Translations under genes and position numbers: made by a program
Notes under the pieces: model-generated
The model's input: only the letters and a program-made list of their open reading frames with translations
The model's database searches: none
Told to the model about the DNA's origin: nothing
Source: Candidatus Rifleibacterium amylolyticum
GTDB lineage: Bacteria; Muiribacteriota; Ozemobacteria; Ozemobacterales; Ozemobacteraceae
Assembly (NCBI GenBank): GCA_009917695.1
Contig: JAACJG010000004.1
Span: forward strand, 211,321 to 275,320
Length of the DNA: 64,000 bases
Direction: 5' to 3'
Shown here: positions 9,659-57,126 of the stretch, piece by piece
Position numbering within the stretch: position 1 is the stretch's first letter
How the letters are laid out: the number at the start of each line of letters is the position of its first letter

Positions 9659-9670
9659 TCAGGAGGCTGA

Positions 9671-10027: not shown

Positions 10028-10251
10028 ATCGGAGCGAAAGTCGCTTAGATTGCGATGTATTCAGAGAGCTTCGGTGTCTGAAAATCGCGCTTAATTTTAG
10101 GCAGACCGCTGCTGAATTTTTGCTTATATTTGCCAGCGCTCTCCGAAAACCCTCTTTATTAAAGACTTTTTGTTGTGGTACGCGTTTTGCGTAAGTTAAA
10201 TGCGTTCTGATTTTATTATTTATTATTATTCAATGCGGAGGGAGCGACTGT

Positions 10252-11616: not shown

Positions 11617-11632
11617 ATCCCGACAGCAAAAA

Positions 11633-11657
11633 CCGCCTCGCAAGAGGCGGTTTTTTT
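11633..11657 (+). terminator. Rho-independent terminator
   Basis: CCGCCTC-gcaa-GAGGCGG stem-loop followed by TTTTTTT. Confidence 0.75.
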
Positions 11658-11671
11658 ATGCAAAAAAAACG

Positions 11672-11700
11672 TTGCTTTGCGTCTGCCTGAGCTCTAGAAT
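11672..11700 (+). promoter_or_regulatory. Sigma-70-like promoter TTGCTT-17-TAGAAT, 8 nt upstream of the ATG (probably a leaderless mRNA)
   Basis: -35 TTGCTT at 11672-11677, 17-nt spacer, -10 TAGAAT at 11695-11700, ATG at 11709. No SD sequence is present. Confidence 0.4.
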
Positions 11701-11708
11701 AAGACGGC

Positions 11709-13274
11709 ATGAATAGTCAAACTACAAATAAACTCAGCTTGAGCCAGCTGTTCCTGGCAGCTTCGATTCTGTCGGTTATAATTACCGTTCTCTGGCTTAT
11801 GTACCCTAATCCGAATCGGCACTACCATCTTGTGCTGACGGGCATGAGCAAGGGGCGCATTCGCCCGTTCAAGGCGAAGTTCAAACCTTACCAGGGCAAA
11901 CGCATGGGTGGAGCTGCTGGTGTTGCAGCTGTGGTCAAAGAAGCCGTGAAGTCTTTCGAAGGCAGTCCTTATAACCTTTTCTCGATTGGCAGCGAAATCT
12001 CTGGTACGGCTGATGCCTATTTCACCCGTGGTGCCGCGATAATCAAGATCATGAATGCCATGGGCATCGAAGCCATGCTGGTCGGTAATATAGAGTTCAC
12101 CTATGGCCAGCGCCGATTGGCTGAGCTTGCCGAGCAGGCGGAGTTCAAATTCGTCAGCTCAAATGTTTCAGAGGTTGTCAGCGAAAGAGTTCCTGATTAC
12201 CTTTCTCCTGGGCTTTTCTTCAATCCAGGTGGTGGTCTTAAGATTGGCGTTATCGGGTTGACGCCGCCTACCACTCCCACTTTGACTGCCCGCAGTAATA
12301 TCGAGGGGCTTGACTTTGGCGATCCCGGAGAGTCTCTGCGTTTGCAGGTCGAAGCCATGCGCAAATCAGGCGCTGATCTCGTTGTTCTGTTGACTCTATA
12401 TAACCGCGATCGCATAAGAGCAGAAGAGTGGCGGCCGATAGCCTCGGCTGCGCCTGATATCTGTGTTATGGTTGATTTTGATATAGATGCGCCGCCGGCA
12501 GTTCGCCGTGACGGCATTGTCATCAAAACTGTCAGCGGTTACAATCAGTCAAAAGAAGTAGACGTGCTCGACCTTGAGATAACTCCACCGCCAGTTCGCA
12601 TAGTTTCATGGAAGGGCCGTCGTCTGGCTGTCAATCATGCCGAGATCACCCCTGATCCTGACGTTGCAAGAGTAGTTGATGCCGTCACCCGTGAGAATCG
12701 TGAAGCGCGCGATCGCTACATTGGTGAATTTGCTGGTGATTACCAGCATCAATGGGATCGCGAGTGCCCGATCGGCAACATGATAACCGACGCGATGCTG
12801 GCAGAGAGCGGTTGTGATATAGCATTCCATAACAGCGGCGGCATTCAGAACAATATTCAGGCCGGCGATTTTTCGGTCGGCGATCTTTTCAGTATGATGC
12901 CTTTCGATAATCAGATGGTGACGATGCAGCTTACCGGAAGCGAGATCGAAGAGCTTCTGCGCATTTCAGCCAGTTTACAGCGTGGTCTTTTACAGGTTGC
13001 CGGCGCCAGTTATGAATTTTCTCTGCGCCCCGAAGGCAATGTACTTGATTCGTTCATGATTGGTGGTGCGCCGGTAGACCCGGATCGAACTTACTCAGTC
13101 TGTACCAACAACTTTCTGGCTGACGGCGGCGACAATTTTACGCCTTTCCGCAAGGGTCGACAAGTTCAGTATGGCCGCCAGCAGCGTGATGTCGTCAGTG
13201 AGTATGTAGCCCGGAACAGTGCCGATGCTCCGCTCCGCCTTTCCACCGATGGCCGAATCGTCAGGCACGATTGA
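11709..13274 (+). CDS. 5'-nucleotidase / UshA-family protein with an N-terminal TM anchor. The metallophosphatase motifs look degenerate.
   Basis: The C-terminal 5'-nucleotidase substrate-binding domain is well conserved (GNMITDAMLAESGCDIAFHNSGGIQNNIQAGDFSVGDLFSMMPFDN; FLADGGDNF). In the N-terminal calcineurin-like domain the canonical metal ligands are replaced (GNIEF instead of GNHEF, and no D-x-H). Confidence 0.7.
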   Translation: MNSQTTNKLSLSQLFLAASILSVIITVLWLMYPNPNRHYHLVLTGMSKGRIRPFKAKFKPYQGKRMGGAAGVAAVVKEAVKSFEGSPYNLFSIGSEISGTADAYFTRGAAIIKIMNAMGIEAMLVGNIEFTYGQRRLAELAEQAEFKFVSSNVSEVVSERVPDYLSPGLFFNPGGGLKIGVIGLTPPTTPTLTARSNIEGLDFGDPGESLRLQVEAMRKSGADLVVLLTLYNRDRIRAEEWRPIASAAPDICVMVDFDIDAPPAVRRDGIVIKTVSGYNQSKEVDVLDLEITPPPVRIVSWKGRRLAVNHAEITPDPDVARVVDAVTRENREARDRYIGEFAGDYQHQWDRECPIGNMITDAMLAESGCDIAFHNSGGIQNNIQAGDFSVGDLFSMMPFDNQMVTMQLTGSEIEELLRISASLQRGLLQVAGASYEFSLRPEGNVLDSFMIGGAPVDPDRTYSVCTNNFLADGGDNFTPFRKGRQVQYGRQQRDVVSEYVARNSADAPLRLSTDGRIVRHD

Positions 13275-13324
13275 TCAGCAGGTAAAACTTCTGGCATTTT
13301 TGCCGGTTGAATTGCCGGTTAAGA

Positions 13325-13353
13325 TTGTCTTTAGCTCGACATCATGGTAGAAT
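13325..13353 (+). promoter_or_regulatory. Promoter TTGTCT-17-(TG)TAGAAT placing the transcription start at or next to the ATG at 13361 (leaderless)
   Basis: Extended -10 TGGTAGAAT at 13345-13353, -35 TTGTCT at 13325-13330, 7 nt from the -10 to the ATG. No SD sequence is present. Confidence 0.4.
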
Positions 13354-13360
13354 CGCAAAC

Positions 13361-14956
13361 ATGTTTGACATATCATGGATAAATCCCGGCGGCAGCGGTA
13401 TCAGCAAAGAATCGCTGCAACGTGAGAACAGCATGCTCAAGCGGCAGATTCAGGAGTTGCTTACTCTTGATGAGACCGGGTTTTTTATCGAACTCGATTC
13501 TTTGCTCAAGGCGATACTGAAAAAGGCACTGGTGCTTTGTAAGGCTGAGTCTTCGTTCTTCTCGCTGGCGGGTAAAGACCCTTCTGACCTTGATGTTCGC
13601 ATCAGTAACGTAATTCTCGAAGAAAAGATGGAAAAAATCCGTCAGCAGTTCAAGGCGGAATACCCGCGTTGGCAGGAGTCAGAGGCCGAAATGCTGACTG
13701 TCGAGGACTTCATTCTGCTGCCACTGGTGCGCCGACATCGCATGCTCGGGGTTATCGGATTGAAACTCACTTCCGATGCGCCTGACAATATTTGTGAAAT
13801 TTTGCCAATTCTGGCGGCTCAGGCAGCGGCCTCTCTTGAAAGCGCCATTCTTTACGAGCGCATGTTCAAGCGTCTGCTGGTATTGAGTAATGTTTTTATT
13901 CTCGGTAAAGAGATCGTATCAAACATTGAGCTGCAGCCGCTTGTAGAGAAATTTCTGTCAATAGCCTGCGATGGTACTGACAGCGATATCGCCTGCATTT
14001 TTCTGCTGCACGAAAAAGACGAGCGCCCTTATTACAGTTATCTCAAGGCGACTGATACGGCTCTCAAATTCGCCGAAAGCTGCCCTGATGGCTATACACA
14101 GATCATTCAAAGCGTGCGCGCAGAAGAGAAGCATTATATTCTCAACGACCTTGCAGCAAGTGACTTCGGTCATAGTGAAGTCGGAAAAGTCGCCGGCATC
14201 ACTCTCAAAGACACTCTGGTATTGCCGCTCAAACCTCGCGATCGTCTGCTGGGCGTTATTCAGGTCGCCAACAAGCGCGGAAATTTTTCTTATCGCCCGG
14301 AAGACCTGGATTTATTGAAGATTCTCGGCAGCCAGGTGGCTTTTGTCATACAGAACGCCGATCTCTTTAAGAACCTGCAACGTGCTTATATCGACACTCT
14401 TTCGGCGTTGACCAGCGCTATCGATGCCAAAGACAGCTATACACGCGGCCACTCAGAACGCGTTACTGAGCTTTCTATCAAACTGGCCGAGTATTTTGGT
14501 GTAGCGCCCGAGGAGGTCGAGAAGATCAAGCTCGGTGGTTTGCTGCATGACATCGGTAAAATCGGCATTCATGAGGGTATTCTCAACAAGCCCGGCCGGC
14601 TTGACGACGAAGAATTTGAAGTGATCAAGTCACACCCTGACCTGGGTGTGCGCATCATGGGCAAGGTTGAGTTTCTCGAATCGATCGTGCCGATCATCCG
14701 TTATCATCACGAACGCTATGACGGAAAAGGCTACCCGGAAGGATTGAGTGGCGAAAAGATTCCGTTGCTTGCCCGCATAGTCAGTGTTGTCGATACTTTT
14801 GACGCCATGACCACTGACCGCCCTTATCGCAAGGCAATGAGTATCGATGCGGCTCTTGCCGAAATCGAGCGTTGTGCCGGCTCGCAGTTTGACCCTGAAA
14901 TAGCAGCGCATTTCGTTCGCATGATCAAAAGCGAAGGTGGACCTGCCAAGTCATGA
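13361..14956 (+). CDS. GAF-domain HD-GYP phosphodiesterase (cyclic-di-GMP-type signalling)
   Basis: Two GAF-like regions are followed by an HD-GYP domain (HDIGKIG...IRYHHERYDGKGYPEGL...DTFDAMTTDRPY). 13361 is the first ATG; the ORF-track start at 13307 is a TTG. The stop overlaps the next gene as ATGA. Confidence 0.75.
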   Translation: MFDISWINPGGSGISKESLQRENSMLKRQIQELLTLDETGFFIELDSLLKAILKKALVLCKAESSFFSLAGKDPSDLDVRISNVILEEKMEKIRQQFKAEYPRWQESEAEMLTVEDFILLPLVRRHRMLGVIGLKLTSDAPDNICEILPILAAQAAASLESAILYERMFKRLLVLSNVFILGKEIVSNIELQPLVEKFLSIACDGTDSDIACIFLLHEKDERPYYSYLKATDTALKFAESCPDGYTQIIQSVRAEEKHYILNDLAASDFGHSEVGKVAGITLKDTLVLPLKPRDRLLGVIQVANKRGNFSYRPEDLDLLKILGSQVAFVIQNADLFKNLQRAYIDTLSALTSAIDAKDSYTRGHSERVTELSIKLAEYFGVAPEEVEKIKLGGLLHDIGKIGIHEGILNKPGRLDDEEFEVIKSHPDLGVRIMGKVEFLESIVPIIRYHHERYDGKGYPEGLSGEKIPLLARIVSVVDTFDAMTTDRPYRKAMSIDAALAEIERCAGSQFDPEIAAHFVRMIKSEGGPAKS

Positions 14957-22733: not shown

Positions 22734-22806
22734 GGGCGCTTAGCTCAGTTGGAAGAGCTCCTGGTTTACACCCAGGTGGTCGGCGGTTCGAGCCCGTCAG
22801 CGCCCA
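22734..22806 (+). tRNA. tRNA-Val (anticodon TAC)
   Basis: Cloverleaf GGGCGCT/AGCGCCC acceptor, anticodon loop TTTACAC, T-loop GGTTCGAGC; the 3' end encodes CC. Confidence 0.85.
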
Positions 22807-22816
22807 CCGAAAGCAT

Positions 22817-22891
<75 letters not shown>

Positions 22892-22905
22892 CTCTCATTT
22901 TAAAA

Positions 22906-22978
<73 letters not shown>

Positions 22979-22990
22979 TTTGTTTTGTCT

Positions 22991-23062
<72 letters not shown>

Positions 23063-23127
23063 TTGTGAAGGGTATTAACCTTCCCACATCTGGCCTGCCA
23101 GTTGCTGGTATGCCTTATAGATATTCT

Positions 23128-23202
<75 letters not shown>

Positions 23203-25895: not shown

Positions 25896-26882
25896 ATGAG
25901 TTTCCCTGTGCATCGTCCGCGGCGTCTGCGTATAGACAGTCGCCTGCGCGGTATGATCCGAGATGTCAGCCTGTCCCCCGCTAACCTGATTTATCCGCTT
26001 TTTGTCGTCGATCAAATTGCTGAACCCCACGAAATTTCGGCGATGCCAGGTCAGAAACACTGGCCGGTTGCGCTCGTGCATGAGCCTGTTGCTGAGGCCA
26101 TGCGCAAGGGTGTCATCGCATTCATTCTTTTTGGCGTTCCATCTGCCAAAGATGCTCACGGCAGTCAGGCTTACGACGCAGACAGCGTTGTCTGTCGCGC
26201 TCTGCGCCACATTCGCCAGCACTGCCCGCAGGCGTATCTGATAACCGACGTCTGCCTGTGTGCATACACCGACCACGGCCACTGTGGTATGCTCAAAGAC
26301 GACGGCAGTATTGATAACGACAGTTCGATCGATCTGATTGCACGCATGGCTCTGGCACATGCGCAGGCTGGCGCTGATATGGTGGCGCCTTCCGATATGA
26401 TGGATGGCCGCATCGGCGCGATAAGAAATCTGCTCGATACAAATGGCCTGGTTGATCTGCCGATAATGTCTTATTCGGCCAAGTATGCCTCGGCTTTTTA
26501 CGGGCCCTTCCGCGAGGCGGCCGGCTCAGCGCCGGGAAAAGGCGATCGCAGCGGCTATCAGATGGACTTTCGCTTCGCGCGCGATGCCATGGTCGAGTTT
26601 GAGCTTGACCTCGAAGAGGGCGCAGATATTCTGATGGTCAAGCCTGGCCTGGCTTATCTCGATATGGTCAAGCTGGCGCGCGACAATTTTCCCTGCCCGA
26701 TCGCGGTTTACCAGGTTTCTGGTGAATATTCGATGATCAAGGCCGCCGCCGAAAAGGGCTGGGTTAACGAACGCGCAGTTGCGCTCGAAAGCCTTTATGC
26801 CATGCGTCGCGCCGGGGCTGACCTTATTTTGACTTATTTTGCGCCGCAGGTTGCTGAATGGCTGCAGGAGGCGAAAAGCTGA
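25896..26882 (+). CDS. hemB: Porphobilinogen synthase (delta-aminolevulinic acid dehydratase)
   Basis: The full-length HemB signature is present, including the Cys-rich Zn site (DVCLCAYTDHGHCG) and active-site lysines (MVKPG..YQVSGEY). Confidence 0.9.
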   Translation: MSFPVHRPRRLRIDSRLRGMIRDVSLSPANLIYPLFVVDQIAEPHEISAMPGQKHWPVALVHEPVAEAMRKGVIAFILFGVPSAKDAHGSQAYDADSVVCRALRHIRQHCPQAYLITDVCLCAYTDHGHCGMLKDDGSIDNDSSIDLIARMALAHAQAGADMVAPSDMMDGRIGAIRNLLDTNGLVDLPIMSYSAKYASAFYGPFREAAGSAPGKGDRSGYQMDFRFARDAMVEFELDLEEGADILMVKPGLAYLDMVKLARDNFPCPIAVYQVSGEYSMIKAAAEKGWVNERAVALESLYAMRRAGADLILTYFAPQVAEWLQEAKS

Positions 26883-27934
26883 TGCCGCATCCGCATGCTA
26901 CGGCACAACAAGATTCTCAACTTCTTCGAGTTCTCGCCTGGGAAAGCACACGCGCCTGCACTCTGGCCTGCCCGCATTGTCGTGCCTCGGCCGTCGATAT
27001 GCGCGATCCAGATGAACTGACTACCGCTGAGGCCATGCAGATGCTTGATTCAGCGGCTGAGCTCGGCAAATCGATTATTATTCTCAGTGGTGGAGAGCCG
27101 CTGCTGCGCGAAGATCTTGAACAGATTGCCGAACATGCGGTTAAACTTGGTCATCGCCCGGTCGTTTCTTGTAATGACGGGCGGCTGTTGACCGACGAGC
27201 GTCTGACTACTCTGGCTGCTGCCGGTATCAGACATTTCAGCTTCAGCATGCACTCAGAGCTTGAGACCGATCACGACCATTTTGTCCGGGTTGAAGGCGC
27301 TTATCGAGAGGCTTTGCAGGCTTTCGCGCGAATAAAAAAGCATGGCCTGTCATTTCAGATCAATACAACGGTTCTGCCGGGTAACCATGAGCGGTTGGCC
27401 AAAATCAAAGACTGGGTCGTTTCACTTGGTGCTGCCAGCTGGCATCTGTTTTTCATTGTGCCGATGGGTCGTGCTGCTGCTGCCGGTTCAGAGGTCGCTC
27501 TCAGGCAGACGCAGATCGACGCGGTGCTCAGATACGTTGCGGCAGAATCTGACGACTGGCCGATTCCGGTAAAGGTGACCTGCGCTCCGCAATATGCGCA
27601 GATACGTGCCAGCATGGGCAAAGATCCCGGCAGCCGCGGGCGCAGCTGTATGGCCGGCAGCGGTTTTGTCTTCGTCAGCTGGTGTGGTGAAGTAAAGCCG
27701 TGCGGCTATTTCGATCTCGTGGTCGGCAATATTCGCAAAACACCTCTGAGCCAGATATATCGCGAAAGTGCTGAGCTGCGTGATATGCGCACTCCGGAAA
27801 AATTCAGCGGCATCTGCGGGCGCTGCAAGTTCAATCGAGTCTGTGGTGGTTGTCGGGCGCGCGCATACGCTGTTAATGGGAGTTTTCTCGCGTCTGACCC
27901 AAATTGCAACTATTCTGCTGGTCAAGAAGGTTAA
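26882..27934 (+). CDS. Radical SAM/SPASM protein of the AhbC/AhbD/NirJ family (alternative heme biosynthesis)
   Basis: A CTLACPHCRAS (CxxxCxxC) motif with a C-terminal SPASM-like cluster site (CGRCKFNRVCGGCRARAY). The start overlaps the hemB stop by 1 nt (TGATG). It is flanked by hemB and AsnC-like decarboxylase genes. Confidence 0.75.
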   Translation: MPHPHATAQQDSQLLRVLAWESTRACTLACPHCRASAVDMRDPDELTTAEAMQMLDSAAELGKSIIILSGGEPLLREDLEQIAEHAVKLGHRPVVSCNDGRLLTDERLTTLAAAGIRHFSFSMHSELETDHDHFVRVEGAYREALQAFARIKKHGLSFQINTTVLPGNHERLAKIKDWVVSLGAASWHLFFIVPMGRAAAAGSEVALRQTQIDAVLRYVAAESDDWPIPVKVTCAPQYAQIRASMGKDPGSRGRSCMAGSGFVFVSWCGEVKPCGYFDLVVGNIRKTPLSQIYRESAELRDMRTPEKFSGICGRCKFNRVCGGCRARAYAVNGSFLASDPNCNYSAGQEG

Positions 27935-47992: not shown

Positions 47993-48907
47993 TCAGAATT
48001 TGTATTCGTATTCGGCGGTGAAGTGCCAATAGCCAAACTCGTCGTCTTTGAGCTTGTTGAAAAGGTTTGGCATCAGGCCCGGCGTGTCTTTCTGCAGGCT
48101 CATGCTCATCAGGCCCATCTGCGACATTTCGGTGCCGAACTGCGTGTAGCCGTCGAGAAAAGCACCGCCGCCAACGCTGAGTTTGAAGCCCTTGAACGGT
48201 CGGTAGCCGAGCTTGCCGATGAAGGTTTTGCGCATAGAATAGGTGTCGGCTTTCGACAGATTGAGTTCGCCCGACCAGGTCATGCGGTGCCAGACGGTGC
48301 CGGCCAGGCCGATGCTGGCGCTTTTGGCGTCGAGTTTATGGCGCCCCTGCTCGATAGTGCCGAAGCTGGCTTTGGCCATAACCATCAGATGCTGGTTGAC
48401 CCAGTGGTTGATTTCACCCTTGAAGGCGTTGGAACTGGCTTCGTTAAGGTATATGGTCGCCAGTCCGCGCCGGTAAGGTTTGGGTGTCAGTTCTTCGTTG
48501 GCATAGCCGACGGTCGCGGCAGTTCGCGAAAAATCGTTGCCGTGGCAGTCCATGCAGCTGTTGGCGCCGGGTTTGAGATCTTTCGAACGATAAACCTGAA
48601 CGTCGATTACATCGCGGGTATAGTCGAAATCGAAGCGTGTGGCTGACCCACGCAGCTCTACATCGCTTTCACTGTGGGTATAACGCACGCGTTTGAACCC
48701 TTCAACGCTGATAAAATTGCGCCATTCATTGGCCGTGCGGCCTTCGAACGATTTGGGAACATGCAGTTGCAGGCGGTCGTGCCCGATCTTAACGCTCTGC
48801 CCGATATCAGCGCCAGCCGGCGAACCGATTTCCCACATTTCTGCTGCCGTTGCCGACCCAACCAGGCCTATTGCCAGACATACCACAAACAAAACTATCT
48901 TTTTCAA
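47993..48907 (-). CDS. Putative outer-membrane beta-barrel protein carrying a single CxxCH heme-binding motif
   Basis: A signal peptide (MKKIVLFVVCLAIGLVGSATAA) and a C-terminal YEYKF with alternating aromatics (OMP beta-signal). CMDCH lies at about residue 120. Confidence 0.5.
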   Translation of the reverse strand: MKKIVLFVVCLAIGLVGSATAAEMWEIGSPAGADIGQSVKIGHDRLQLHVPKSFEGRTANEWRNFISVEGFKRVRYTHSESDVELRGSATRFDFDYTRDVIDVQVYRSKDLKPGANSCMDCHGNDFSRTAATVGYANEELTPKPYRRGLATIYLNEASSNAFKGEINHWVNQHLMVMAKASFGTIEQGRHKLDAKSASIGLAGTVWHRMTWSGELNLSKADTYSMRKTFIGKLGYRPFKGFKLSVGGGAFLDGYTQFGTEMSQMGLMSMSLQKDTPGLMPNLFNKLKDDEFGYWHFTAEYEYKF

Positions 48908-49096
48908 GCTGATGCCTCTTTGTTGATTTAATGTCTGAGCATGCTATCAGATAAGCCCCAATTTGTCACGACCCCAGCACAACCTGTTTCAGAAAGCCTT
49001 GTTATTCGCAGATTAAGCCGATCTCCGCAGAATAAAGCCGAAAACCCTCACGCAGAGGCGCAGAGGGGCAAGGCCAGAACAACTGTATCCAGCTCT

Positions 49097-49402
49097 TTAA
49101 TCATCTTCAGTCTTGACCAGTTTTTGCCATTTCAGAGGATTTTGTCTCAGATGCATGAATGCGTAGACGACAATCTCTTTGTCTGTATGGCGATATATCA
49201 TTGCGTAAGGAAACCTGTTCAACAGGCATCTTCTGGTTGTTTCTATAAAATGAGGCCAGGCATCAGGATACGCCGCTATTCTTCTCAGACACTCCCTTGC
49301 TTCGGCGGCAAGATCGTATCCGAGCCCCGGGTATTGTTCGTTGTAGTAATCCACTGCCGCTGCCAATTCAGCTTCAGCACACGACAGGATGCGAACTTTC
49401 AT
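49097..49402 (-). CDS. Type II toxin-antitoxin system RelE/ParE-family toxin
   Basis: The 101-aa protein MKVRILSCAEAELAAAVDYYNEQ...RRCLLNRFPYAMIYRHTDKEIVVYAFMHLRQNP fits the ParE/RelE fold pattern. Confidence 0.65.
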   Translation of the reverse strand: MKVRILSCAEAELAAAVDYYNEQYPGLGYDLAAEARECLRRIAAYPDAWPHFIETTRRCLLNRFPYAMIYRHTDKEIVVYAFMHLRQNPLKWQKLVKTEDD

Positions 49403-49623
49403 CGCTTTGCCAGTCGTTTGAAGACATTTTCAGATGAATCCGCTGTTATCTTTCCGGCATCATAGGCGGCAACCCTGTCCTTGACTTCTTTCTTCCATTT
49501 TTTCTCAAATGTCGCATCGTATATCGACGAGAAACTGAAAAACAGCCGGTTCAACAGCTCTGCCCGGTCGACCGGGTCAAGTTGCATCGCATCTTTTAAA
49601 ACAGCTTCCAAGCCTGTTACCAT
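49399..49623 (-). CDS. Putative addiction-module antitoxin (small helical protein upstream of the toxin, overlapping it)
   Basis: 74 aa with an ATGA overlap to the toxin; resembles the putative addiction module component family (LDPVDRAELLNRL). Confidence 0.5.
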   Translation of the reverse strand: MVTGLEAVLKDAMQLDPVDRAELLNRLFFSFSSIYDATFEKKWKKEVKDRVAAYDAGKITADSSENVFKRLAKR

Positions 49624-49817
49624 TTCGCTCTTCCTTTATCAAACTACATTAATTATAACATCTGCCATAAGCAAGATCAATTCAGTAAAACGGTGCAGTC
49701 TGCAAAAATCACGCAGAAATATTTTCCCCAAATCGTTTTTCAGCTGATTAACATATGGAGTGTCAATGGCAACACCGCTTGCCCGCTCCAGAATGCCGAA
49801 TTTTGAAGGAAGAATAT

Positions 49818-50846
49818 ATGACAGGAACTTATATTGGCCAGGATGTCGAGCCAAAGATCTACTCGATACTCAATGACTTTGCCTTTCAGTGGATATTCGG
49901 GCGCGAGGGCAACGAAAAGCTTACCATCAGTCTGCTGAACGCGATTCTGCGATTCGAAGACGACCGGCGCATCGAAGAGTTGCACTATCTCAACCCGTTC
50001 AACATGCGGCGCTTCAGAAGAGACAAGCTGACGGTTGTAGATGTTAAGGCCCGCGACTGCCGGGGGCGCTGGTATAACATCGAGGCCCAGGCCTGCGAAC
50101 ATGAGGCTTATATTGCCAGAACCGCATATTATGTGGCTAAGCTCTATTCGAGTCAGATCTTCGCCGGCGACAATTGCACCGCTTTGAACTCGGCGACGAG
50201 TATTTCGATCATGAACTTCGACCTGTTCGAAAACTCTGATCAGGTTCACGAAATATTCGAACTGCGCAATCGTAACGGCCAGCTGGTTCTTGATAACAGC
50301 ATGTCGCTGCATTATATAGACCTGACCAAATTCAACCGTGACAAGCCGCGTTCTCTGCGCACGCCATTTGAAAAGTGGCTCGATCTGATGAAATTTTCTC
50401 ACATTTACGGTAAAATAGGAGTAGAGATACCGCCATATCTCGACGAGGAGGTTTACGCCATGGCAATCGCCCAGCACCGACAACTCAATGCCAACGAAAA
50501 AATGCGTCGCCGCATGGAAGAGCGCGAGCGCTGCGAACTTGATATAGCTCTAATCCGCGGTGCCGCCTACGATAAAGGCGTTGCTCGCGGCCACTCTCTC
50601 GGCAAAACAGAAGGTCTGATAGAAGGCCTGGCAAAAGGCAAAATAGAAGGCAAAGCAGAAGGCAGGGGAGAAGGAGCTGCTGGCGTTATCAAAACTGTTC
50701 TTGTTTCGCGCTTTGGGGAAGTGCCCGCCGAACTTCTTGCGCGCATCGATGAGGTCAGCGTCCTTGCAGCTTTGCAGCAACTGGCGGCTGCAGCAGCCAC
50801 CGCCAACAGTCTCGACGACTTCGCAGCTCACCTGCCTCCGGTTTGA
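49818..50846 (+). CDS. Rpn-family (YhgA-like) PD-(D/E)XK recombination-promoting nuclease / putative transposase
   Basis: An N-terminal nuclease core (ILNDFAFQWIFGREGNEKLTISLLNAIL...DVKARDCRGRWYNIEAQ) and a C-terminal repetitive tail (GKTEGLIEGLAKGKIEGKAEGRGEG). The ATG at 49818 follows GAAGGAAG. Confidence 0.75.
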   Translation: MTGTYIGQDVEPKIYSILNDFAFQWIFGREGNEKLTISLLNAILRFEDDRRIEELHYLNPFNMRRFRRDKLTVVDVKARDCRGRWYNIEAQACEHEAYIARTAYYVAKLYSSQIFAGDNCTALNSATSISIMNFDLFENSDQVHEIFELRNRNGQLVLDNSMSLHYIDLTKFNRDKPRSLRTPFEKWLDLMKFSHIYGKIGVEIPPYLDEEVYAMAIAQHRQLNANEKMRRRMEERERCELDIALIRGAAYDKGVARGHSLGKTEGLIEGLAKGKIEGKAEGRGEGAAGVIKTVLVSRFGEVPAELLARIDEVSVLAALQQLAAAAATANSLDDFAAHLPPV

Positions 50847-50990
50847 GCTGAAAAGACAAACCGCCGATGCGACAATTTCGCACAATAATGCCGGAAGATT
50901 TCACGCAGAGCTGCTGAGACATAGAGGCGCAAGTTTACTGCCCGTCACTGGTCGGATCGTTCGCGAGTCATAGGAAGTAACGATTTTGCA

Positions 50991-51443
50991 CTATTGTGGC
51001 TTTGGACTGATCAGTTTGTATTTCTGTAGAGATTCGCCGGGAGTCATTATCGGGATTGGAAAATTTTTCTGCACTTCAGGGTTCAGGATATGTTTGCGGT
51101 CGAGTGAGATCAGAATATCGGCTTTGCCCTTTATGGCGCCGGCCAGAACGTGGGTATCCTTAGCATGTGTAAATTTTTGCCACGTTTCATTTTCCTGGCT
51201 GTTAGGGCTATCTACCAGAAGCAGCGGGAGCGGTTCGAGTGTTTTGAAAAACCATTGCCAGAGAGCATGGCCGAGAAGGTCGATGATATTGCTCTGCGCT
51301 TCGTTAAGGATTTTGGCAGTTGCCAGCAGTAGAATTTTCTTTTCAGCAGCTACTGCGAGCAGGCGCGCACTGCCGCCGGCTGGAGAGTTTGCGGCGGTTA
51401 CCAGAATGCAGGCATCCAGAAACAGTCTGGGCTTTTCCTTCAT
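50991..51443 (-). CDS. PIN-domain protein (VapC-like toxin)
   Basis: LFLDACILVTAANSP... fits the PIN fold acidic-residue pattern. Translation is coupled (ATGA) to the upstream ribbon-helix-helix gene. Confidence 0.6.
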   Translation of the reverse strand: MKEKPRLFLDACILVTAANSPAGGSARLLAVAAEKKILLLATAKILNEAQSNIIDLLGHALWQWFFKTLEPLPLLLVDSPNSQENETWQKFTHAKDTHVLAGAIKGKADILISLDRKHILNPEVQKNFPIPIMTPGESLQKYKLISPKPQ

Positions 51444-51688
51444 ATCTGATCTTCGCGAGTGAATTCATCAAGCTGTTTTTTCGTATAACGCCGCAGTTTT
51501 TCGGAACTCTCTGCCGTTAGCAGCAGCTGGTATGCTTCGGCAAATGAGGTCTCTCTGACGCCTTTCTGTCGGGTGATTATCTGAATAGCTTTCATAAGCA
51601 GTTCAGACATGCTGATTCCTGTCGTTGCCGACAAGATCTTGAGTTCCCGGTGAGTTTCTTCAGACAGGCGCAGGGTAAGCGTTTTCAT
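51440..51688 (-). CDS. Ribbon-helix-helix (CopG-like) antitoxin paired with the PIN protein
   Basis: MKTLTLRLSEETHRELKILSATTGISMSELLMKAI is an RHH signature. The ATG at 51688 follows GGAGGTCACC. Confidence 0.55.
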   Translation of the reverse strand: MKTLTLRLSEETHRELKILSATTGISMSELLMKAIQIITRQKGVRETSFAEAYQLLLTAESSEKLRRYTKKQLDEFTREDQI

Positions 51689-51775
51689 GGTGACCTCCAG
51701 ACCAAAACAATTCTCTAATATAAGTATAGCATGATTGATAAAACATTCAATCATGCAAATTATCAGACACAAAAT

Positions 51776-51912
51776 CGGCGTCAGGATCGTGCTGAAACGC
51801 CAGCGTAGGCGGAGATTCGCGCAATCAGCGGTTTGATTATTCGGAGAGGCTGAATGTCAATGAAGAGACTTAACTACCGCCAGCAATGAAGTAAGGTGTC
51901 CCCCGAACCCAA
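51776..51912. repeat. Repeat-A copy 1, about 140 bp (...GGATCGYGC..AGCGTAGGCGG..GAGATTCGCGCAATC..GCGG..TTATTCGG...GGTGTCCCCCGAAC)
   Basis: Aligns at roughly 80% identity with 53524-53657; partial copy at 53031-53118. Confidence 0.55.
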
Positions 51913-52090
51913 TTTGCGCGCCATTTCTGCGGCGCAAATGTATAAGGCCATCCATGGCCAAAAAGCCGCAGCTCTGAGGTTAATCTCACTGTTCGACAAC
52001 GATTTCAGCACTTATTGCCAGGATACAGGCTTTGCATTATACTGAACCATACTGAATTTTGTTGTGAAATGCGCATAGCGAGGTATTTCA

Positions 52091-53032
52091 ATGCAACCGG
52101 CTATTTATCTCAATCCCTTTACCGACTTTGGCTTCAAAAAGCTGTTTGGCGAAGAATACAACAAAGATCTGCTGATCGACTTCCTCAACCAGCTTCTCAA
52201 AAAAGAGCAGGGCCGTATCAAAACTCTGACTTACCTCAAAAACGAGCACCTCGGCCGCTCCGAAGCCGATCGCCGCGCCGTTTACGACCTTTACTGCGAG
52301 AATGAACAGGGCGAGAAATTTATCGTTGAGATACAGAAGTCAAAACAGAAGTTCTTCAAGGATCGCGCACTTTATTATTCGACTTTTCCGATCGCAGAGC
52401 AGGGAAAGGTCGGCGATTGGGATTTCGAGCTGAAAGCTGTCTATACCGTTGCGATTCTTGACTTTGTCTTCGACGAAGACAGATGCGATGCTGAGAAGTA
52501 TCGTTACGACGTCAAACTCACCGATATCGAAACTTACAAGGTTTTCTACGACAAGCTGACTTTTGTATACCTTGAAATGCCCAAATTCGAGAAAACTCTC
52601 GAAGAACTCGAAACTCGCTTTGACAAATGGCTCTATGTACTGAAAAACCTTGAGCGCCTGCACGATATCCCCGAAAAGCTCAAGGATCGTATCTTCAGAA
52701 AACTGTTCGCCGCCGCCGAAATAGCCAAATTCACTCCTGAAGAGGCCAGAGCCTACGAAGACAGCCTGAAGGTTTACCGTGACCTCAAGAATTCAATCGA
52801 CACTGCCCGCGAAGAAGGCCGTGAAGAAGGTCGCGAAGAAGGTATTGCACAAGTTGCGAAAAATCTGCTGCGAATGGGTCAGTCTATTGTAGACGTGAGC
52901 AAAGCAACTGGTTTATCACTCGAAGCCCTCGATAAAATACAGGCTTCAGATGGCAACAGCGTAAAAGAACCCGCCGCACCCTACAAAACCACCAGAAAGC
53001 CCAAAAAACCGTCAGTCCGTTTTAAAAAGTAA
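52091..53032 (+). CDS. Rpn-family (YhgA-like) PD-(D/E)XK nuclease / putative transposase, second divergent copy
   Basis: MQPAIYLNPFTDFGFKKLFGEEYNKDLLIDFLNQLL...DLYCENEQGEKFIVEIQ with a C-terminal REEGREEGREEG repeat. Confidence 0.75.
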   Translation: MQPAIYLNPFTDFGFKKLFGEEYNKDLLIDFLNQLLKKEQGRIKTLTYLKNEHLGRSEADRRAVYDLYCENEQGEKFIVEIQKSKQKFFKDRALYYSTFPIAEQGKVGDWDFELKAVYTVAILDFVFDEDRCDAEKYRYDVKLTDIETYKVFYDKLTFVYLEMPKFEKTLEELETRFDKWLYVLKNLERLHDIPEKLKDRIFRKLFAAAEIAKFTPEEARAYEDSLKVYRDLKNSIDTAREEGREEGREEGIAQVAKNLLRMGQSIVDVSKATGLSLEALDKIQASDGNSVKEPAAPYKTTRKPKKPSVRFKK

Positions 53033-53118
53033 TCTGCGGTTGCTGTTATTCGGGGGGGCTGAATGTTCTGAAGAGATCTAACTGCTGCCAGCATTTAGTA
53101 AGGTGTCCCCCCGAGCCC
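53031..53118. repeat. Repeat-A copy 2 (3' portion) immediately after the second rpn gene
   Basis: AATCTGCGGTTGCTGTTATTCGGGGGGGCTGAATGTTCTGAAGAGATCTAACTGC...GGTGTCCCCCCGAGCCC. Confidence 0.55.
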
Positions 53119-53148
53119 AGATGTCAGATTCTGTAACCTGTTACTTTT

Positions 53149-53370
53149 TCAGGCTACGAGTCTGGCGTTTGCAATCTCTTTTGGGCCAATGACCCTTAGT
53201 TGCGAAGCTTTAAGCGTTAAAACCGCCAGAGTTTCGCCTGACAGTGTCGTGAATTCAACCTCATAACCTTTGCCGGCATGTTCAAGAACTTCTGCGCCGA
53301 TATCTCCTGCCAACAGGCCATGCTCGGGCAGATCTACGGCCAGAGCAACTATATCCAGCTCTTTGATCAT
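53149..53370 (-). CDS. DUF4926-like small protein
   Basis: MIKELDIVALAVDLPEHGLLAGDIGAEVLEHAGKGYEVEFTT... matches the DUF4926 pattern. The ATG at 53370 is 8 nt after AAGGAG. Confidence 0.5.
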   Translation of the reverse strand: MIKELDIVALAVDLPEHGLLAGDIGAEVLEHAGKGYEVEFTTLSGETLAVLTLKASQLRVIGPKEIANARLVA

Positions 53371-53523
53371 CTTTTCAGCTCCTTGAGGATGGGTAAAGGA
53401 TATGCGGTTACCAGTCTGGGTGTTTGTTCGCCGTGTTCGATAAACCATATCGCTTTTACTAATGGCTTTCTAATACTTGCTTTCTGCCGCTTCACTGAAA
53501 ATAAAAAAGACTCGTTAACAATC

Positions 53524-53657
53524 TGCGCCAGGATCGCGCCGAAGAGGCAACGTAGGCGGGAGAGATTCGCGCAATCCGCGGTTGCTGTTATTCGGGGGGC
53601 TGAATGTTCTGAAGAGATTCAACTGCCTTCAGTGATTAAGTAAGATGTCCCCCGAAC
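53524..53657. repeat. Repeat-A copy 3
   Basis: CCAGGATCGCGCCGAAGAGGCAACGTAGGCGGGAGAGATTCGCGCAATCCGCGGTTGCTGTTATTCGGGGGGCTGAATGTTCTGAAGAGATTCAACTGCCTTCAG...GATGTCCCCCGAACCCC. Confidence 0.55.
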
Positions 53658-53979
53658 CCCAGGCGACTCACCGACACTCGGCCATCCATGGCCTTCGGTC
53701 GCGGCGCACGAAATCCGGGCTGCGCCTTTGATACTCACCCATCCATGGCCTTCGCGGGGAGGTTCTGCCGATGAAGCAGTCTCATCGTTAACTGGACAGT
53801 TGCGTTTAGAACAGTGTTTTTGATCTGAAATCGTTGGCGAAATCTGCGTCAATTAGCACAATCAAGGGTTTGCAGCCGTTGTCGGCATTTTCATTGCCGC
53901 AAATACAATATTTGTAATATAGGTGCAGCTGGTTATTTGTCTGAAACTATTAGAAAAAGCTATGCTTTGCGCATTTCTA

Positions 53980-54675
53980 TCAGCGTGATTTGATAACAGT
54001 TGCCTGAGTGGCGATACATTGAACGCCTTCGCCATCAAGTATATTGTTAGGATCATTTGCTGAAATTGTGTCACTGCCTGTTTGAAAAGCCGGATTCCCA
54101 GCGAAGTCCATTGCAAGCGTAACTGTCATATCGTAACTTGAAGTTGCCGCACTGGTAAATGTGTTGGGCGGATTATTGGAAAAAATAAAATCTGCGGGGG
54201 TAAGCGTTGTTACATCTGAGACTAAGGGTCGAGTGAGGCGCAAAATAAGATTATCGCCGGTATCGACAACCAGTGAGCGGTTGGCGTCTTCCCAGAATGC
54301 TCTCGATATGGCTAGAGGAGGTCGAAAATAGACCACTACCTCGTCACCGGTGTTGTGAATGCGGTCTGGTCCAAATGAATAACAGGTAGATGATGCTGGT
54401 GATATGGCGTATGGCCTGCCCCAAGGATCGGCTGTCGCTTTGTTCATGTAGGGGCCAACCAGACCCGATGTGTCGGTTTTATCATATGGTCTGCTCTGAT
54501 CAGTTTCGAAGCGGATCAATGCGTTTCTGATCTCATCGAGATCCTGCTTGGCTCTAGAATTTCTAGAATCTTCAACATATTGCTGAACGTAAGGCAATAC
54601 AGCACCAGCGAGTATGGCAATAATGGTAATGACGATCAGCAGTTCGATCAGTGTGAAACCATTTTTATTCATCAT
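53980..54675 (-). CDS. GspG-like pseudopilin with a C-terminal extension (paralog 1 of the array)
   Basis: MMNKNGFTLIELLIVITIIAILAGAVLPYV...DPWGRPYAISPASSTCYSFGPDRIHNTGDEV is the GspG signature (G|FTLIEL, DPWGxPY, GPD). About 95 extra C-terminal residues end in GVQCIATQATVIKSR. Confidence 0.75.
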   Translation of the reverse strand: MMNKNGFTLIELLIVITIIAILAGAVLPYVQQYVEDSRNSRAKQDLDEIRNALIRFETDQSRPYDKTDTSGLVGPYMNKATADPWGRPYAISPASSTCYSFGPDRIHNTGDEVVVYFRPPLAISRAFWEDANRSLVVDTGDNLILRLTRPLVSDVTTLTPADFIFSNNPPNTFTSAATSSYDMTVTLAMDFAGNPAFQTGSDTISANDPNNILDGEGVQCIATQATVIKSR

Positions 54676-54733
54676 TATTCAGTCCTAAAAACATTTCTGA
54701 CGGTATTGCTACCGTCAGAAATGTTTGCTAAGT

Positions 54734-55513
54734 TTACAGTGCCTTAATTACAACAGGGTTTAATTTTGATTTATTGCCAAGCGGCGCGTCGGTTGGTGCT
54801 TCGACGGCGTTATATGGTAGTGATACTGCTTGGTCTACCGCATTAGTAGATGTTTCCAATACTCTGATAGTATCGCGTCCAGGAGTGAAGGTGGCTACGC
54901 CGAAATCAGTTACTGTCCAGATGCATTCGCGAAAATCAGTGCCTGCGACTGACGTGAAAGTAAGTGTGGAAGGCGCACCATTCGTATCGACCACAAACTC
55001 CGCTCCAGTCAATGTTGTTGGATCAGTCAGTTCTCTGGTGAAACGAACCTTCATAAGGTCGCCGGATGAAACCGAGCCATCTTTATTGGCGTCGATATAT
55101 GTTACCCTTGATAATGCCATTGGTGCGCGAAAATCTACTGCGATATCATCTGCGGTTCCCGCTATCGTTCCTGTATTTGCCTGTGGGGTGTAGTCCGTAG
55201 CGCGGTCGGGACCATATGAAAATACAACAGAGGCTGATGCGCAGATCTTATAAGGTGTACCCCACGGGTCTGCAAGAGTTTTGCTCAGGTATGGGCCGAC
55301 GAGATTCGTAAGATCTTGTTCTGTCCAGAGCTTACCTGTGTCGAGTTCATAACGCAGAAGAGCGTTCTTGATTTCATCCAGATCGGCTCGAACCTTAGAT
55401 ACACGCGCATCTTCAACGTAGTCAGAGACATACGGGATGGCGGCGCCCGCGAGGATCGCGATGATCGTGATAACGATCAACAGTTCAATGAGTGTAAAAC
55501 CTTTTCTTAGCAT
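54734..55513 (-). CDS. GspG-like pseudopilin with a C-terminal extension (paralog 2)
   Basis: The ATG at 55513 (MLRKGFTLIELLIVITIIA) is 7 nt after GGAGGG. DPWGTPYKICASASVVFSYGPDRATD is present. The C-terminal domain lacks the CI(A/G)SQ ending. Confidence 0.7.
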   Translation of the reverse strand: MLRKGFTLIELLIVITIIAILAGAAIPYVSDYVEDARVSKVRADLDEIKNALLRYELDTGKLWTEQDLTNLVGPYLSKTLADPWGTPYKICASASVVFSYGPDRATDYTPQANTGTIAGTADDIAVDFRAPMALSRVTYIDANKDGSVSSGDLMKVRFTRELTDPTTLTGAEFVVDTNGAPSTLTFTSVAGTDFRECIWTVTDFGVATFTPGRDTIRVLETSTNAVDQAVSLPYNAVEAPTDAPLGNKSKLNPVVIKAL

Positions 55514-55671
55514 GTTGATGCCCTCCTGAAAATTTTGATTCCCAAACTTATAGAACCAGATCAACTTATGCAGGATAAACCGCCTGCCCGGACTAATACC
55601 CTTACAATATATAAAGATTTCTTTTTTATTTTCAACCCCGAATAAATATTAGCAATAACCGTACCACTTAA

Positions 55672-56391
55672 TCACTGCGGCAGAATTCTAACCGCCTGGC
55701 TGCCGATACATAGATTCCCTGCCATATCTGCAAGTGTAGCATGGGTGTAATCAATTTCAATACTGTCAGAGCCAGGCACGAATGCATTGTCTACCAGTAC
55801 GCTGTATACAAGTGTCCGGCTGGCAACCATTTTGAGGGAAGTCTCTTCGAACAGGCCAGAGAATAATGTGCTGGTGCCATTTACGACAAAATACCCGTCT
55901 ATAGCGTTATTATTCAAATCTGCTTCAAGATTGATTAGCTTTCTGCTGAAAGTCAGCTGAATAGTGTCAGAAGCATTTTGTGTATCAACTGCACCAGACT
56001 GGTTCCGGTCAACCCACTTGGCACTGACAAGCGCCAGCGGTGGTTGATATGGACCTTGTATGTTGTCTTCCGTGGTGGTTGTGTCTCGGTCTGGACCTCC
56101 TGATATAACTAAACCAGAATCCGTTGCAATGAGATATGGTCTTCCCCAGGGGTCTATAGGAGCTTTGTTGAGATAGCGTCCGGTCAGATCAGTTACATCG
56201 CCTTTGACATATTCGCCTTCGCGAGTTTCGTATACTGCAAGAGCGCGTGCAATTTCCTCAAGGTCCGTTTTTGCTTTTGCAATACGCGATTCCTCAACGT
56301 AATTTTGAACGTATGGAAGGGCAGCGCCGGCAAGAACGGCAAGAATTGTGATTACAACCAGCAGTTCGATAAGAGTGAAGCCTTTTTTCAT
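55672..56391 (-). CDS. GspG-like pseudopilin with a C-terminal extension (paralog 3). About 96% aa identical to paralog 4.
   Basis: MKKGFTLIELLVVITILAVLAGAALPYV...DPWGRPYLIATDSGLVISGGPDRD...NLCIGSQAVRILPQ; AAGGAG RBS. Confidence 0.8.
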   Translation of the reverse strand: MKKGFTLIELLVVITILAVLAGAALPYVQNYVEESRIAKAKTDLEEIARALAVYETREGEYVKGDVTDLTGRYLNKAPIDPWGRPYLIATDSGLVISGGPDRDTTTTEDNIQGPYQPPLALVSAKWVDRNQSGAVDTQNASDTIQLTFSRKLINLEADLNNNAIDGYFVVNGTSTLFSGLFEETSLKMVASRTLVYSVLVDNAFVPGSDSIEIDYTHATLADMAGNLCIGSQAVRILPQ

Positions 56392-56406
56392 ACTTTCTCC
56401 TTGAGG

Positions 56407-57126
56407 CTATTGTGGCAAAATCACAACAGGCTGACTGGCGATACAGAGATTGTTTGCCATATCGGCTAAGGTTGCGTGTGTGTAGTCTATTTCAATACTG
56501 TCAGAGCCAGGCACGAAAGCGTTGTCGACCAGTACATTGTAAACCAACGTCCTGCTGGCAACTATTTTGAGGGAAGTATCTTCGAACAGGCCGGAAAATA
56601 GTGTGCTTGTGCCATTTACGACAAAATATCCGTCAATGGCGTTATTATTCAAATCAACCTCGAGATTGCTGAGTTTTCTACTGAACGTAAGCTGAATAGT
56701 GTCAGAAGCATTTTGTGTATCAACAGCACCTGACTGGTTGCGATCTACCCACTTTGCACTGACAAGAGCCAATGGCGGCTGATAAGGTCCCTGGATGTTA
56801 TCTTCTGTGGTTGCCGTATCGCGGTCTGGCCCGCCCGAAATTACCAACCCCGAATCTGTAGCTATGAGATAGGGTCTTCCCCATGGGTCAATGGGAGCTT
56901 TATTAAGATAGCGGCCGGTCAGGTCTGTTACATCACCTTTGACGTATTCGCCTTCCCGTGTTTCGTATACAGCCAGAGCGCGAGCTATTTCTTCGAGGTC
57001 TGTTTTTGCCTTAGCAATGCGCGATTCCTCAACGTAATTCTGGACATACGGCAGTGCCGCCCCAGCTAGAACTGCTAGGATAGTGATTACAACAAGAAGT
57101 TCTATAAGTGTGAAACCTTTTTTCAT
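56407..57126 (-). CDS. GspG-like pseudopilin with a C-terminal extension (paralog 4, near-duplicate of paralog 3)
   Basis: Same length (239 aa) and about 10 substitutions relative to paralog 3; ends NLCIASQPVVILPQ. Confidence 0.8.
   Translation of the reverse strand: MKKGFTLIELLVVITILAVLAGAALPYVQNYVEESRIAKAKTDLEEIARALAVYETREGEYVKGDVTDLTGRYLNKAPIDPWGRPYLIATDSGLVISGGPDRDTATTEDNIQGPYQPPLALVSAKWVDRNQSGAVDTQNASDTIQLTFSRKLSNLEVDLNNNAIDGYFVVNGTSTLFSGLFEDTSLKIVASRTLVYNVLVDNAFVPGSDSIEIDYTHATLADMANNLCIASQPVVILPQ

Follow-up and report, generated by a model that had tools for sequence, protein, structure and literature searches.

A Strain-Variable Islet of Toxin–Antitoxin and Rpn Nuclease Modules with REP-Like Repeats in Candidatus Rifleibacterium amylolyticum

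Gene Content of the Locus

A 64-kb stretch of DNA from Candidatus Rifleibacterium amylolyticum, referred to here as the window, carries an island of 4.8 kb (48.9-53.7 kb) between an outer-membrane protein (OMP) gene and a pseudopilin array, in which small toxin–antitoxin and nuclease genes are accompanied by three copies of a repeat (Table 1). All seven genes and the two gene remnants of this island fall into toxin–antitoxin or nuclease families and, to judge from sequence, are most simply read as five toxin–antitoxin or abortive-defence modules, namely a ParE toxin with its antitoxin, a PIN toxin with a ribbon-helix-helix (RHH) antitoxin, the nucleases Rpn1 and Rpn2, and a DUF6883/DUF4926 remnant pair. 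A preliminary description of this DNA had listed a RelE/ParE toxin with its antitoxin, a PIN/RHH pair, two divergent Rpn genes, and a DUF4926 gene, and all seven were recovered in the open reading frame (ORF) list and the family scans. Protein families were assigned through Pfam, NCBIfam, and sequence matches in the PDB, whereas Rfam and ARAGORN were used for RNA, PADLOC for defence systems, and an nhmmer profile for the repeat.

Table 1. Genes, gene remnants, and repeat copies of the island (window coordinates; aa, amino acids; nt, nucleotides).
Feature	Coordinates	Strand	Remarks
DUF4926 gene-start remnant	49048..49107	-	MIKELDTVVLA...; 18 codons, then a stop; its ATG and the stop codon of ParE overlap
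ParE/RelE-type toxin, 101 aa	49097..49402	-	Pfam ParE_toxin 23.2 bits (cutoff 23)
Antitoxin (Unstab_antitox / putative addiction module component), 74 aa	49399..49623	-	PF09720, 36 bits
Rpn1, PD-(D/E)XK nuclease with C-terminal DUF4351, 342 aa	49818..50846	+	Pfam PDDEXK_2 (PF12784) E 4e-47
PIN-domain toxin, 150 aa	50991..51443	-	Pfam PIN_3 38 bits; NCBIfam TIGR00305 29.3 bits (cutoff 29.15)
RHH antitoxin, 83 aa from the ATG behind GGAGGT	51440..51691	-	Weak RHH_3, Antitox_RHH, and HicB matches
Repeat copy A, full length	51739..51912	+	nhmmer E 7e-53; 85-nt left extension and 88-nt core (51824-51912)
Rpn2, PD-(D/E)XK nuclease, 313 aa	52091..53032	+	Pfam PDDEXK_2 E 8e-78; TIGR01784 114 bits (cutoff 52)
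Repeat copy B, 88-nt core only	53031..53118	+	nhmmer 53029-53120, E 3e-27; starts within the stop codon of Rpn2
DUF4926 protein, 73 aa from MIKELDIV	53149..53370	-	Pfam DUF4926 E 2e-20
Truncated DUF6883 (BECR-Tox3-type toxin) gene, 42-codon ORF	53367..53495	-	Homology limited to about the last 32 codons
Repeat copy C, full length	53483..53661	+	nhmmer E 1e-54; core 53573-53660; last copy before the pseudopilin array

In both type II pairs, the antitoxin gene overlaps the toxin gene by 4 nt. Pfam places the PIN and Unstab_antitox proteins above threshold, ParE at threshold, and RHH below it, and the ParE toxin also matches the PDB entry of ParE2, 8c26, over its full length (E 8e-4). Sigma-70-like promoter sites lie upstream of three modules, at 49680-49652 for the Unstab_antitox antitoxin (TTGATC-17-TATAAT with an extended TG), at 51750-51723 for the RHH antitoxin, and at 52015-52043 for Rpn2; since these sites are located between the repeat and the gene, the repeats are not the promoters of these three modules.

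Rpn1 and Rpn2 are 25% identical to each other. Rpn1 also matches NCBIfam TIGR01784 (104 bits, cutoff 52), and its start is taken at the ATG behind GAAGGAAG, the ORF as listed beginning at 49755. Both proteins contain four-residue repeats, which in Rpn1 read KIEG, KAEG, or RGEG (KGKIEGKAEGRGEG in the C-terminal region, 50560-50680) and in Rpn2 correspond to three REEG units encoded by a 12-nt DNA repeat at 52808-52853. The number of units in Rpn1 varies by strain (related strains and loci are cited here by L number), with three more in L003 (1-330) than in the window and fewer in L008 (8790-9275). No solved structure matching Rpn2 by sequence was found. In Escherichia coli, Rpn nucleases are toxic, are neutralised by separately translated C-terminal domains, and act against phages, and they contain a run of four-residue repeats whose number is strain-variable and which is hypervariable in the RpnS antitoxin domains (PMC10400941). 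The island proteins resemble RpnL/RpnS of that study in the PD-(D/E)XK Rpn domain, the C-terminal DUF4351-type domain, and the strain-variable four-residue repeats, and an internal start, toxicity, and a role in phage defence are predicted for them. By analogy, Rpn1 and Rpn2 are probably gene-within-gene modules, in which the antitoxin would be the internally translated C-terminal domain.

The DUF4926 gene, listed in the preliminary description without a partner, is indeed present, but a partner accompanies it in the form of the truncated DUF6883 gene, and a stub of a second DUF4926 gene exists at the other side of the island, where positions 49072-49107 are 92% identical to the DUF4926 gene start at 53338-53373; the same 36 nt are present in strain L005. 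The C-terminal sequence of the DUF6883 stub is identical to that of an intact 122-aa gene in the 95%-identical strain L001 (1245-1613). L001 positions 1351-1708 are missing from the window, and the DUF6883 gene has suffered a 5' deletion. In L001, the intact gene overlaps the DUF4926 start, and homologues of the 73-aa DUF4926 protein are placed downstream of DUF6883 in both L001 and L006; an intact DUF6883 gene occurs in Riflebacteria GWC2_50_8 as well. DUF6883 and DUF4926 are presented as a toxin–immunity pair in a 2026 preprint (bioRxiv 10.64898/2026.08.28.747851), and DUF4926 is predicted to be the immunity or antitoxin partner of DUF6883, orphaned here by truncation of the toxin.

Variability of the Slot among Relatives

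Relatives were gathered via homologues of the flanking 304-aa OMP and are named Candidatus Riflebacteria or Rifleibacteriota, with OMP identities to the window of 80% in GWC2_50_8, 78% in L008, 77% in L010, 67% in L011, and 63% in L012; the close strains L001-L004, with 83-95% nucleotide identity to the window, were found via the repeat itself. The slot between the OMP gene and the pseudopilin array holds a different toxin–antitoxin content in every relative examined, and four configurations occur among the strains of 83-95% identity. L001 contains PIN/RHH, one repeat, and DUF4926 with the intact DUF6883, and lacks Rpn2; L002 contains Rpn2, one repeat, and a different first pseudopilin gene, and lacks DUF4926; and L003 and L004 contain Rpn1, one core repeat, and pseudopilins. 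GWC2_50_8 carries a 9-kb array composed of DUF6883/DUF4926, an Rpn C-terminal fragment, RelB/YafQ, an Rpn gene, a nucleotidyltransferase gene (NTP_transf_2), HigB/HTH_3, a truncated ParE with antitoxin, DUF1186/SEC-C, RHH/PIN, and an AbiEii-like gene, while the slot of L010, between pseudopilins and OMP, has one Rpn gene and ParE/antitoxin only. In L008, small ORFs occupy the slot together with a PDDEXK_3 fragment and the C-terminal part of an Rpn gene, and toxin–antitoxin genes lie beyond the OMP gene. L006/L007, L008/L009, and L010 have different toxin–antitoxin sets beside the same OMP.

The GlgP–OMP flank is kept in L006, L010, L011, and L012 (and in GWC2_50_8). The two most distant relatives, L011 and L012, have neither the island nor the pseudopilin array, and in them haem and radical-SAM genes adjoin the OMP gene. 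The different module sets of the relatives therefore support the accessory nature that the preliminary description had attributed to the block, and conservation of the block in the same order across related genomes, which that description had named as the contrary outcome, was not found.

In addition, the OMP gene of L008 is bracketed by motif copies (8280, 11292, and 14721, within 8260-14740), and toxin–antitoxin genes are found to either side of it; other DNA has taken the place of the GlgP flank in this relative, and the OMP gene is thus inside the variable region.

Repeat Copies in the Window

A profile built from the repeat copies gives exactly three significant matches in the 64 kb, the next best having an E value of 0.55, and one 15-nt stretch taken from it is present 3 times, where 0.08 occurrences would be expected. 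The preliminary description had spoken of a repeat of roughly 140 bp separating each of the genes; three significant copies stand, all in direct orientation, but two of them, A and C, measure about 175 nt each and have in common an 85-nt extension, while B consists of the 88-nt core. Three junctions carry a copy. None is found between ParE/antitoxin and Rpn1, and between Rpn1 and PIN/RHH there is a resemblance at 50830-50886 that falls short of significance (nhmmer E 0.55). At 49.0 and 50.9 kb there may be additional, degenerate copies, but these are likewise not significant by nhmmer (E 0.55).

The core of the repeat consists of a right arm with the full 3'-end motif and a left arm reduced to TTCGGGGGG(G)C, i.e., the outer 9-10 nt, with an unrelated spacer of about 55 nt between them. 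Cores B and C retain a stem of 9-10 bp, the outer part of which reads CGGGGGGG/CCCCCCG in B and TTCGGGGGG/CCCCCGAA in C, and both fold with a z-score of -1.9. Core A, which ends in AAGTAAGGTGTCCCCCGAACCC, has lost the stem because its left arm reads GGAGAGG, and it folds no better than shuffled sequences (z 0.07). Changes among close copies (A and L001a) break the stem and are not compensatory.

Two further small repeats were seen near the copies. A 40-nt direct repeat, 75% identical, is present at 49026-49065, on the left edge of the island, and at 50879-50918, just after Rpn1, and the same 40-nt sequence precedes the core repeat in L003 (about 340-400); it may be a very degenerate further copy of the repeat or some other boundary element. 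The palindrome GGCCATCCATGGCC lies shortly downstream of copies A (51946-51959) and C (53680-53693), with 2 exact occurrences against 0.03 expected, and may be part of a longer repeat unit; a variant of it is found at 53737-53750, 57 nt beyond the palindrome of copy C.

Kinship of the Repeat

The 3' end of the repeat is a 25-27-nt motif, AATTAAGTAAGGTGTCCCCCGAAC, that is nearly identical across phyla. From it, RAGTNRGGTGTCYCYCGAAC is the sole piece of the repeat that recurs in the islands of relatives, always in the same orientation, with 5 copies in GWC2_50_8 and 3 copies in L008, and it was not seen elsewhere in the 210 kb of DNA examined. When 185,579 genomes, one per bacterial species, were scanned with a 20-nt pattern from the 3' end, 46 loci were obtained. 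These matches are not chance, despite the approximately 50 that would be expected by chance from the degeneracy of the pattern alone. Most of them fall in Desulfobacterota, Planctomycetota, Riflebacteria, Nitrospirota, and a small number of other groups rich in anaerobes, and five upstream positions outside the scanned pattern are conserved, reading AATTA in 22 of 48 instances. A separate genome scan, with 22 nt taken from the middle of the repeat as the pattern, had 0 matches and, therefore, the centre is lineage-specific. The neighbours of the motif are unrelated housekeeping genes, and in other Riflebacteria assemblies it also stands beside ordinary genes, hence it is a dispersed element and no mark of the island. 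Thus, the punctuation by repeats that the preliminary description had taken as a feature of the island holds insofar as copies do lie between modules, but the repeat belongs to a dispersed, cross-phylum family of REP-like (repetitive extragenic palindromic) sequences.

Among 112 neighbours of the motif, only one family is enriched, a Y1 transposase of about 221 aa with a Y1_Tnp domain, and 5 of 44 loci have its gene, or what is left of it, next to the motif. The 221-aa protein of L017 scores 82.8 bits against NCBIfam NF047646, the model of REP-associated tyrosine transposases (RAYTs; cutoff 80), and 19 bits against the IS200 model, while the protein of L054, at 66.5 bits against NF047646, stays below the cutoff. 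The gene is bracketed by inverted copies of the motif in L054, L059, and L061; in L017 and L060, the latter at a contig end, only the right-end copy is present. The left end of the element, GTTCGGGGGACACCTTACTTAATTATTGAC, lies about 40 nt before the ATG, and the stop codon is inside the right end (GAT AAG TAA directly followed by GGTGTCCCCCGAAC). The family is large, with at least 8000 homologues at E <=1e-20, many of them on contigs of about 0.8-1.2 kb. Loci of the Y1/motif element were noted in L017, L025, L026, L037, L054, and L059-L061.

An inverted partner of the motif is found within 130 nt upstream of 9 of the 46 copies and downstream of none. A single 25-nt arm (GGTGTCCCCCGAAC...) lacks internal complementarity, so that folding occurs by the doublet only, and intact doublets fold with z-scores of -8 to -10.6, against the much weaker values of the window copies given above. 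Elsewhere, tandem partial copies follow the motif, in the form (CCCCCGAAC)n and (AAGGTGTCCCCCGAACT)n. The window copies are accordingly classed as degenerate doublets resembling the REPIN (REP doublet forming a hairpin) or MITE (miniature inverted-repeat transposable element) kind, in which two inverted REP-type arms make up a short non-autonomous hairpin element. The motif string was not found in the literature searched, and Rfam contains no family matching the repeat, either at gathering thresholds over the whole window or at E values up to 5 over the island. A hammerhead ribozyme, considered on account of CUGAAGA ... GUC beside a G6/C6 stem, was rejected, since a GAAA element, suitable stems, and an Rfam match are all lacking.

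Breakpoints and Probable Recombination at the Repeats

The breakpoints that distinguish the island variants coincide with the repeat. L001 lacks Rpn2 together with copy B, and its single copy agrees with A at almost every informative site and then passes directly into the right flank of B, which puts the junction within the final 4-7 nt of the repeat. The copy of L002 resembles B in its left part and C in its right part, with the switch within a 26-nt stretch that is identical in B and C; this chimera is the signature of homologous recombination between direct repeats. In L003, the 3' flank of Rpn1 is joined directly to the first base, i.e., the 5' end, of a C-like core.

As the copies lie in direct orientation between modules, they would constitute portable stretches of homology, and recombination among them, or with incoming DNA that bears a copy, could delete, add, or swap whole modules. 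The repeats are most likely recombination substrates for module gain and loss, and we infer that the breaks were made by homologous recombination rather than by an enzyme acting on the hairpins. The modules themselves would, from their families, be active in addiction or phage defence. Taken together, the island is likely to be a strain-variable islet in a recombination-prone slot, with REP-like repeats as the recombination substrates.

Nevertheless, several observations weigh against this interpretation. The L001 junction, being in the last 4-7 nt and outside the longer identical stretches, is not where RecA-type recombination would usually place it, and a site-specific event explains it just as well; since copies are present at three junctions only, the repeats cannot explain all of the variation. 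No integrase or transposase occurs in 48.9-53.7 kb, no recombinase was found among ten other mid-sized ORFs of the window, and tblastn detected no RAYT in the window or in the Riflebacteria loci examined. The island is not a compositional outlier either: its G+C of 0.483, compared with equal-size windows of the 64-kb stretch (mean 0.509, standard deviation 0.022), lies at the 11th percentile. PADLOC recognised no known defence system, and the ParE and RHH family scores are at or below their thresholds. Of the mobile-derived defence or addiction island that had been suggested there, the variable and toxin–antitoxin-rich character is thus borne out, while the evidence for mobility is indirect. 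Moreover, ARAGORN found no tRNA or transfer-messenger RNA fragment that could be an integration target of the island.

Alternative Explanations

The position of the L001 junction could also be accounted for by a Y1 transposase of the RAYT type, encoded elsewhere, that would cut and join single-stranded DNA at the hairpin ends and thereby mobilise units of a gene plus a hairpin. Y1 enzymes of the IS200/IS605 type insert 3' of a short specific sequence, and the junction between L001 and the window is placed exactly at the 3' end of the motif, directly after ...GAACCCA, with the same ending in the inserted unit; furthermore, three strains carry unrelated DNA from exactly behind the 3' end of the last repeat, and the tandem partial end-copies seen elsewhere look as if events at the motif end had been repeated. 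However, the search of the window and of the Riflebacteria loci examined yielded no RAYT gene, the window copies are degenerate and copy A does not fold, the L002 crossover is in the repeat centre, away from the ends, and we know of no gene mobilisation by RAYTs shown so far, which makes such an agent quite improbable. A stronger form of this proposal would regard the doublets as live sites of a Y1-driven cassette system that collects toxin–antitoxin and defence modules, in which hairpins and RAYT would replace attC and integrase and new modules would enter exactly on the 3' side of the ...CCCCCGAAC(C) end. The end-of-repeat junction of L001, the three unrelated right flanks, and the tandem end-copies in other phyla are compatible with it, and it is considered very doubtful. 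Cassettes of toxin–antitoxin genes are typical of chromosomal integrons, and the island could be thought of as an integron-like cassette array, namely an integrase-less cluster of attC sites (CALIN, cluster of attC sites lacking integron integrases) in which the repeat is the folded site at the 3' end of each cassette and a tyrosine integrase is encoded elsewhere. Imperfectly palindromic repeats in a single orientation, one per module at three junctions, with conserved ends around a variable centre, are shared with such arrays, as is the richness in toxin–antitoxin genes, and the Rpn2 module and the divergent copy B are present or absent together, the module with its own 3' repeat being inserted exactly after the 3' end of copy A. 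Yet the ends read 5'-GGTT...GAAC-3' on both strands, which is the inverse of the attC cores RYYYAAC...GTTRRRY, and a canonical attC site was rejected for this wrong core order. In addition, single copies of the motif are scattered beside housekeeping genes of many phyla, and the motif is also found flanking a Y1 transposase gene, no integrase was detected in the island or among the ten mid-sized ORFs, and several modules have no repeat between them; an integron-like array is, therefore, extremely unlikely.

Two further explanations take the repeats as incidental to the rearrangements or as elements with another function. Rpn proteins were named for promoting recombination, and the Rpn nucleases might themselves drive RecA-independent recombination that shuffles neighbouring modules. 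Indeed, it has been speculated that RpnL may initiate events that duplicate rpn genes and vary their repeats (PMC10400941). Most versions of the island hold at least two Rpn genes or fragments, but no sequence specificity ties Rpn to the breakpoints, which are at the repeat and not at the Rpn genes, and the slot of L008 varies though only an Rpn C-terminal fragment is left there; hence the probability of an Rpn-driven origin is minimal. Alternatively, the repeats could be regulatory or structural RNA or DNA elements, such as terminators, operators, or small RNAs, kept by selection. The place of copy B, which begins at the Rpn2 stop codon, and of the L003 copy, which follows Rpn1, is that of a terminator, and copies A and C, with their common 85-nt extension, are upstream of divergent toxin–antitoxin operons. 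Against this function, the stem is lost in copy A and is without a subsequent T-tract where it exists, no Rfam match appears even at E 5, the promoter-like sites are outside the repeat, between repeat and gene, and elsewhere the motif adjoins genes of no common kind as well as a transposase gene, which leaves regulation a very improbable reason for the presence of the repeats. The favoured explanation remains recombination between REP-like copies in a strain-variable slot.

Relation to Known Systems

The island is of an ordinary accessory kind, and its gene families, the decay of its modules, and recombination at repeats are all standard. As in other toxin–antitoxin and defence hotspots, a compact cluster of unrelated modules lies between core genes, its content varies among close relatives, and some modules are degraded, here the truncated DUF6883 gene and the DUF4926 stub. 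It differs from them in having no integrase, transposase, tRNA target, compositional signal, or PADLOC system, and in its host, which belongs to the little-studied phylum Riflebacteria. A hotspot of this kind is thereby documented, with several configurations at strain level, in a phylum known almost only from metagenomes.

The repeat shares with the REP/REPIN–RAYT systems (Bertels and Rainey; PMC3337134, PMC5581495) a short extragenic motif that occurs as singlets, as tandem clusters, and as inverted doublets able to form hairpins, and that stands in inverted orientation on either side of a Y1 transposase gene, whose product matches the NCBIfam model of REP-associated tyrosine transposases. 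However, classical REP sequences are imperfect palindromes with a 5' GTAG-type tetranucleotide, whereas the 25-nt arm described here is no palindrome, and the window copies are degenerate and have a 55-nt unrelated spacer. Moreover, RAYT–REPIN pairs of groups 2 and 3 are vertically inherited (PMC5581495), whereas it is more like an insertion sequence that the motif hardly differs from phylum to phylum, that the transposase family looks multi-copy, and that many homologues of the transposase are on contigs of only about 0.8-1.2 kb. The repeat is a decayed member of a Y1-transposase-associated hairpin element whose 25-27-nt end is nearly identical across several anaerobic phyla, and the Y1 element family, being more similar to insertion sequences than to classical, vertically inherited REPIN–RAYT pairs, could be of interest to REP research.

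Flanking Genes and Other Observations

The 304-aa putative OMP (47993-48907, minus strand) has a signal peptide, the C-terminal sequence ...YEYKF, and a CxxCH haem-binding motif (CMDCH), and it matches no Pfam family. Its homologue is beside cytochrome c and haem-biosynthesis genes in L011 and L012. In the window, hemB and a radical-SAM/SPASM gene (25896-27934) are located 20 kb from the OMP gene, on the GlgP side, compared with 8339-9550 in L011, which suggests, if orthology is assumed, a rearrangement between the window and the haem/radical-SAM arrangement of L011 and L012. Such a rearrangement may have come about together with the acquisition of the island and of the type II secretion/pseudopilin cluster.

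Five tRNA genes, unrelated to the island, are clustered at 22734-23202 on the plus strand (Rfam tRNA, 66-75 bits). On the other side of the island, the first pseudopilin gene is highly divergent between strains, with 231, 236, and 242 aa and about 69% nucleotide identity, while the later ones are about 91% identical (window 53980-57126, L002 268-3375, and L003 609-5576 were compared). The window also contains near-identical tandem genes for 239-aa pseudopilins at 55672-56391 and 56407-57126, and the pseudopilin array itself looks like a variable region.

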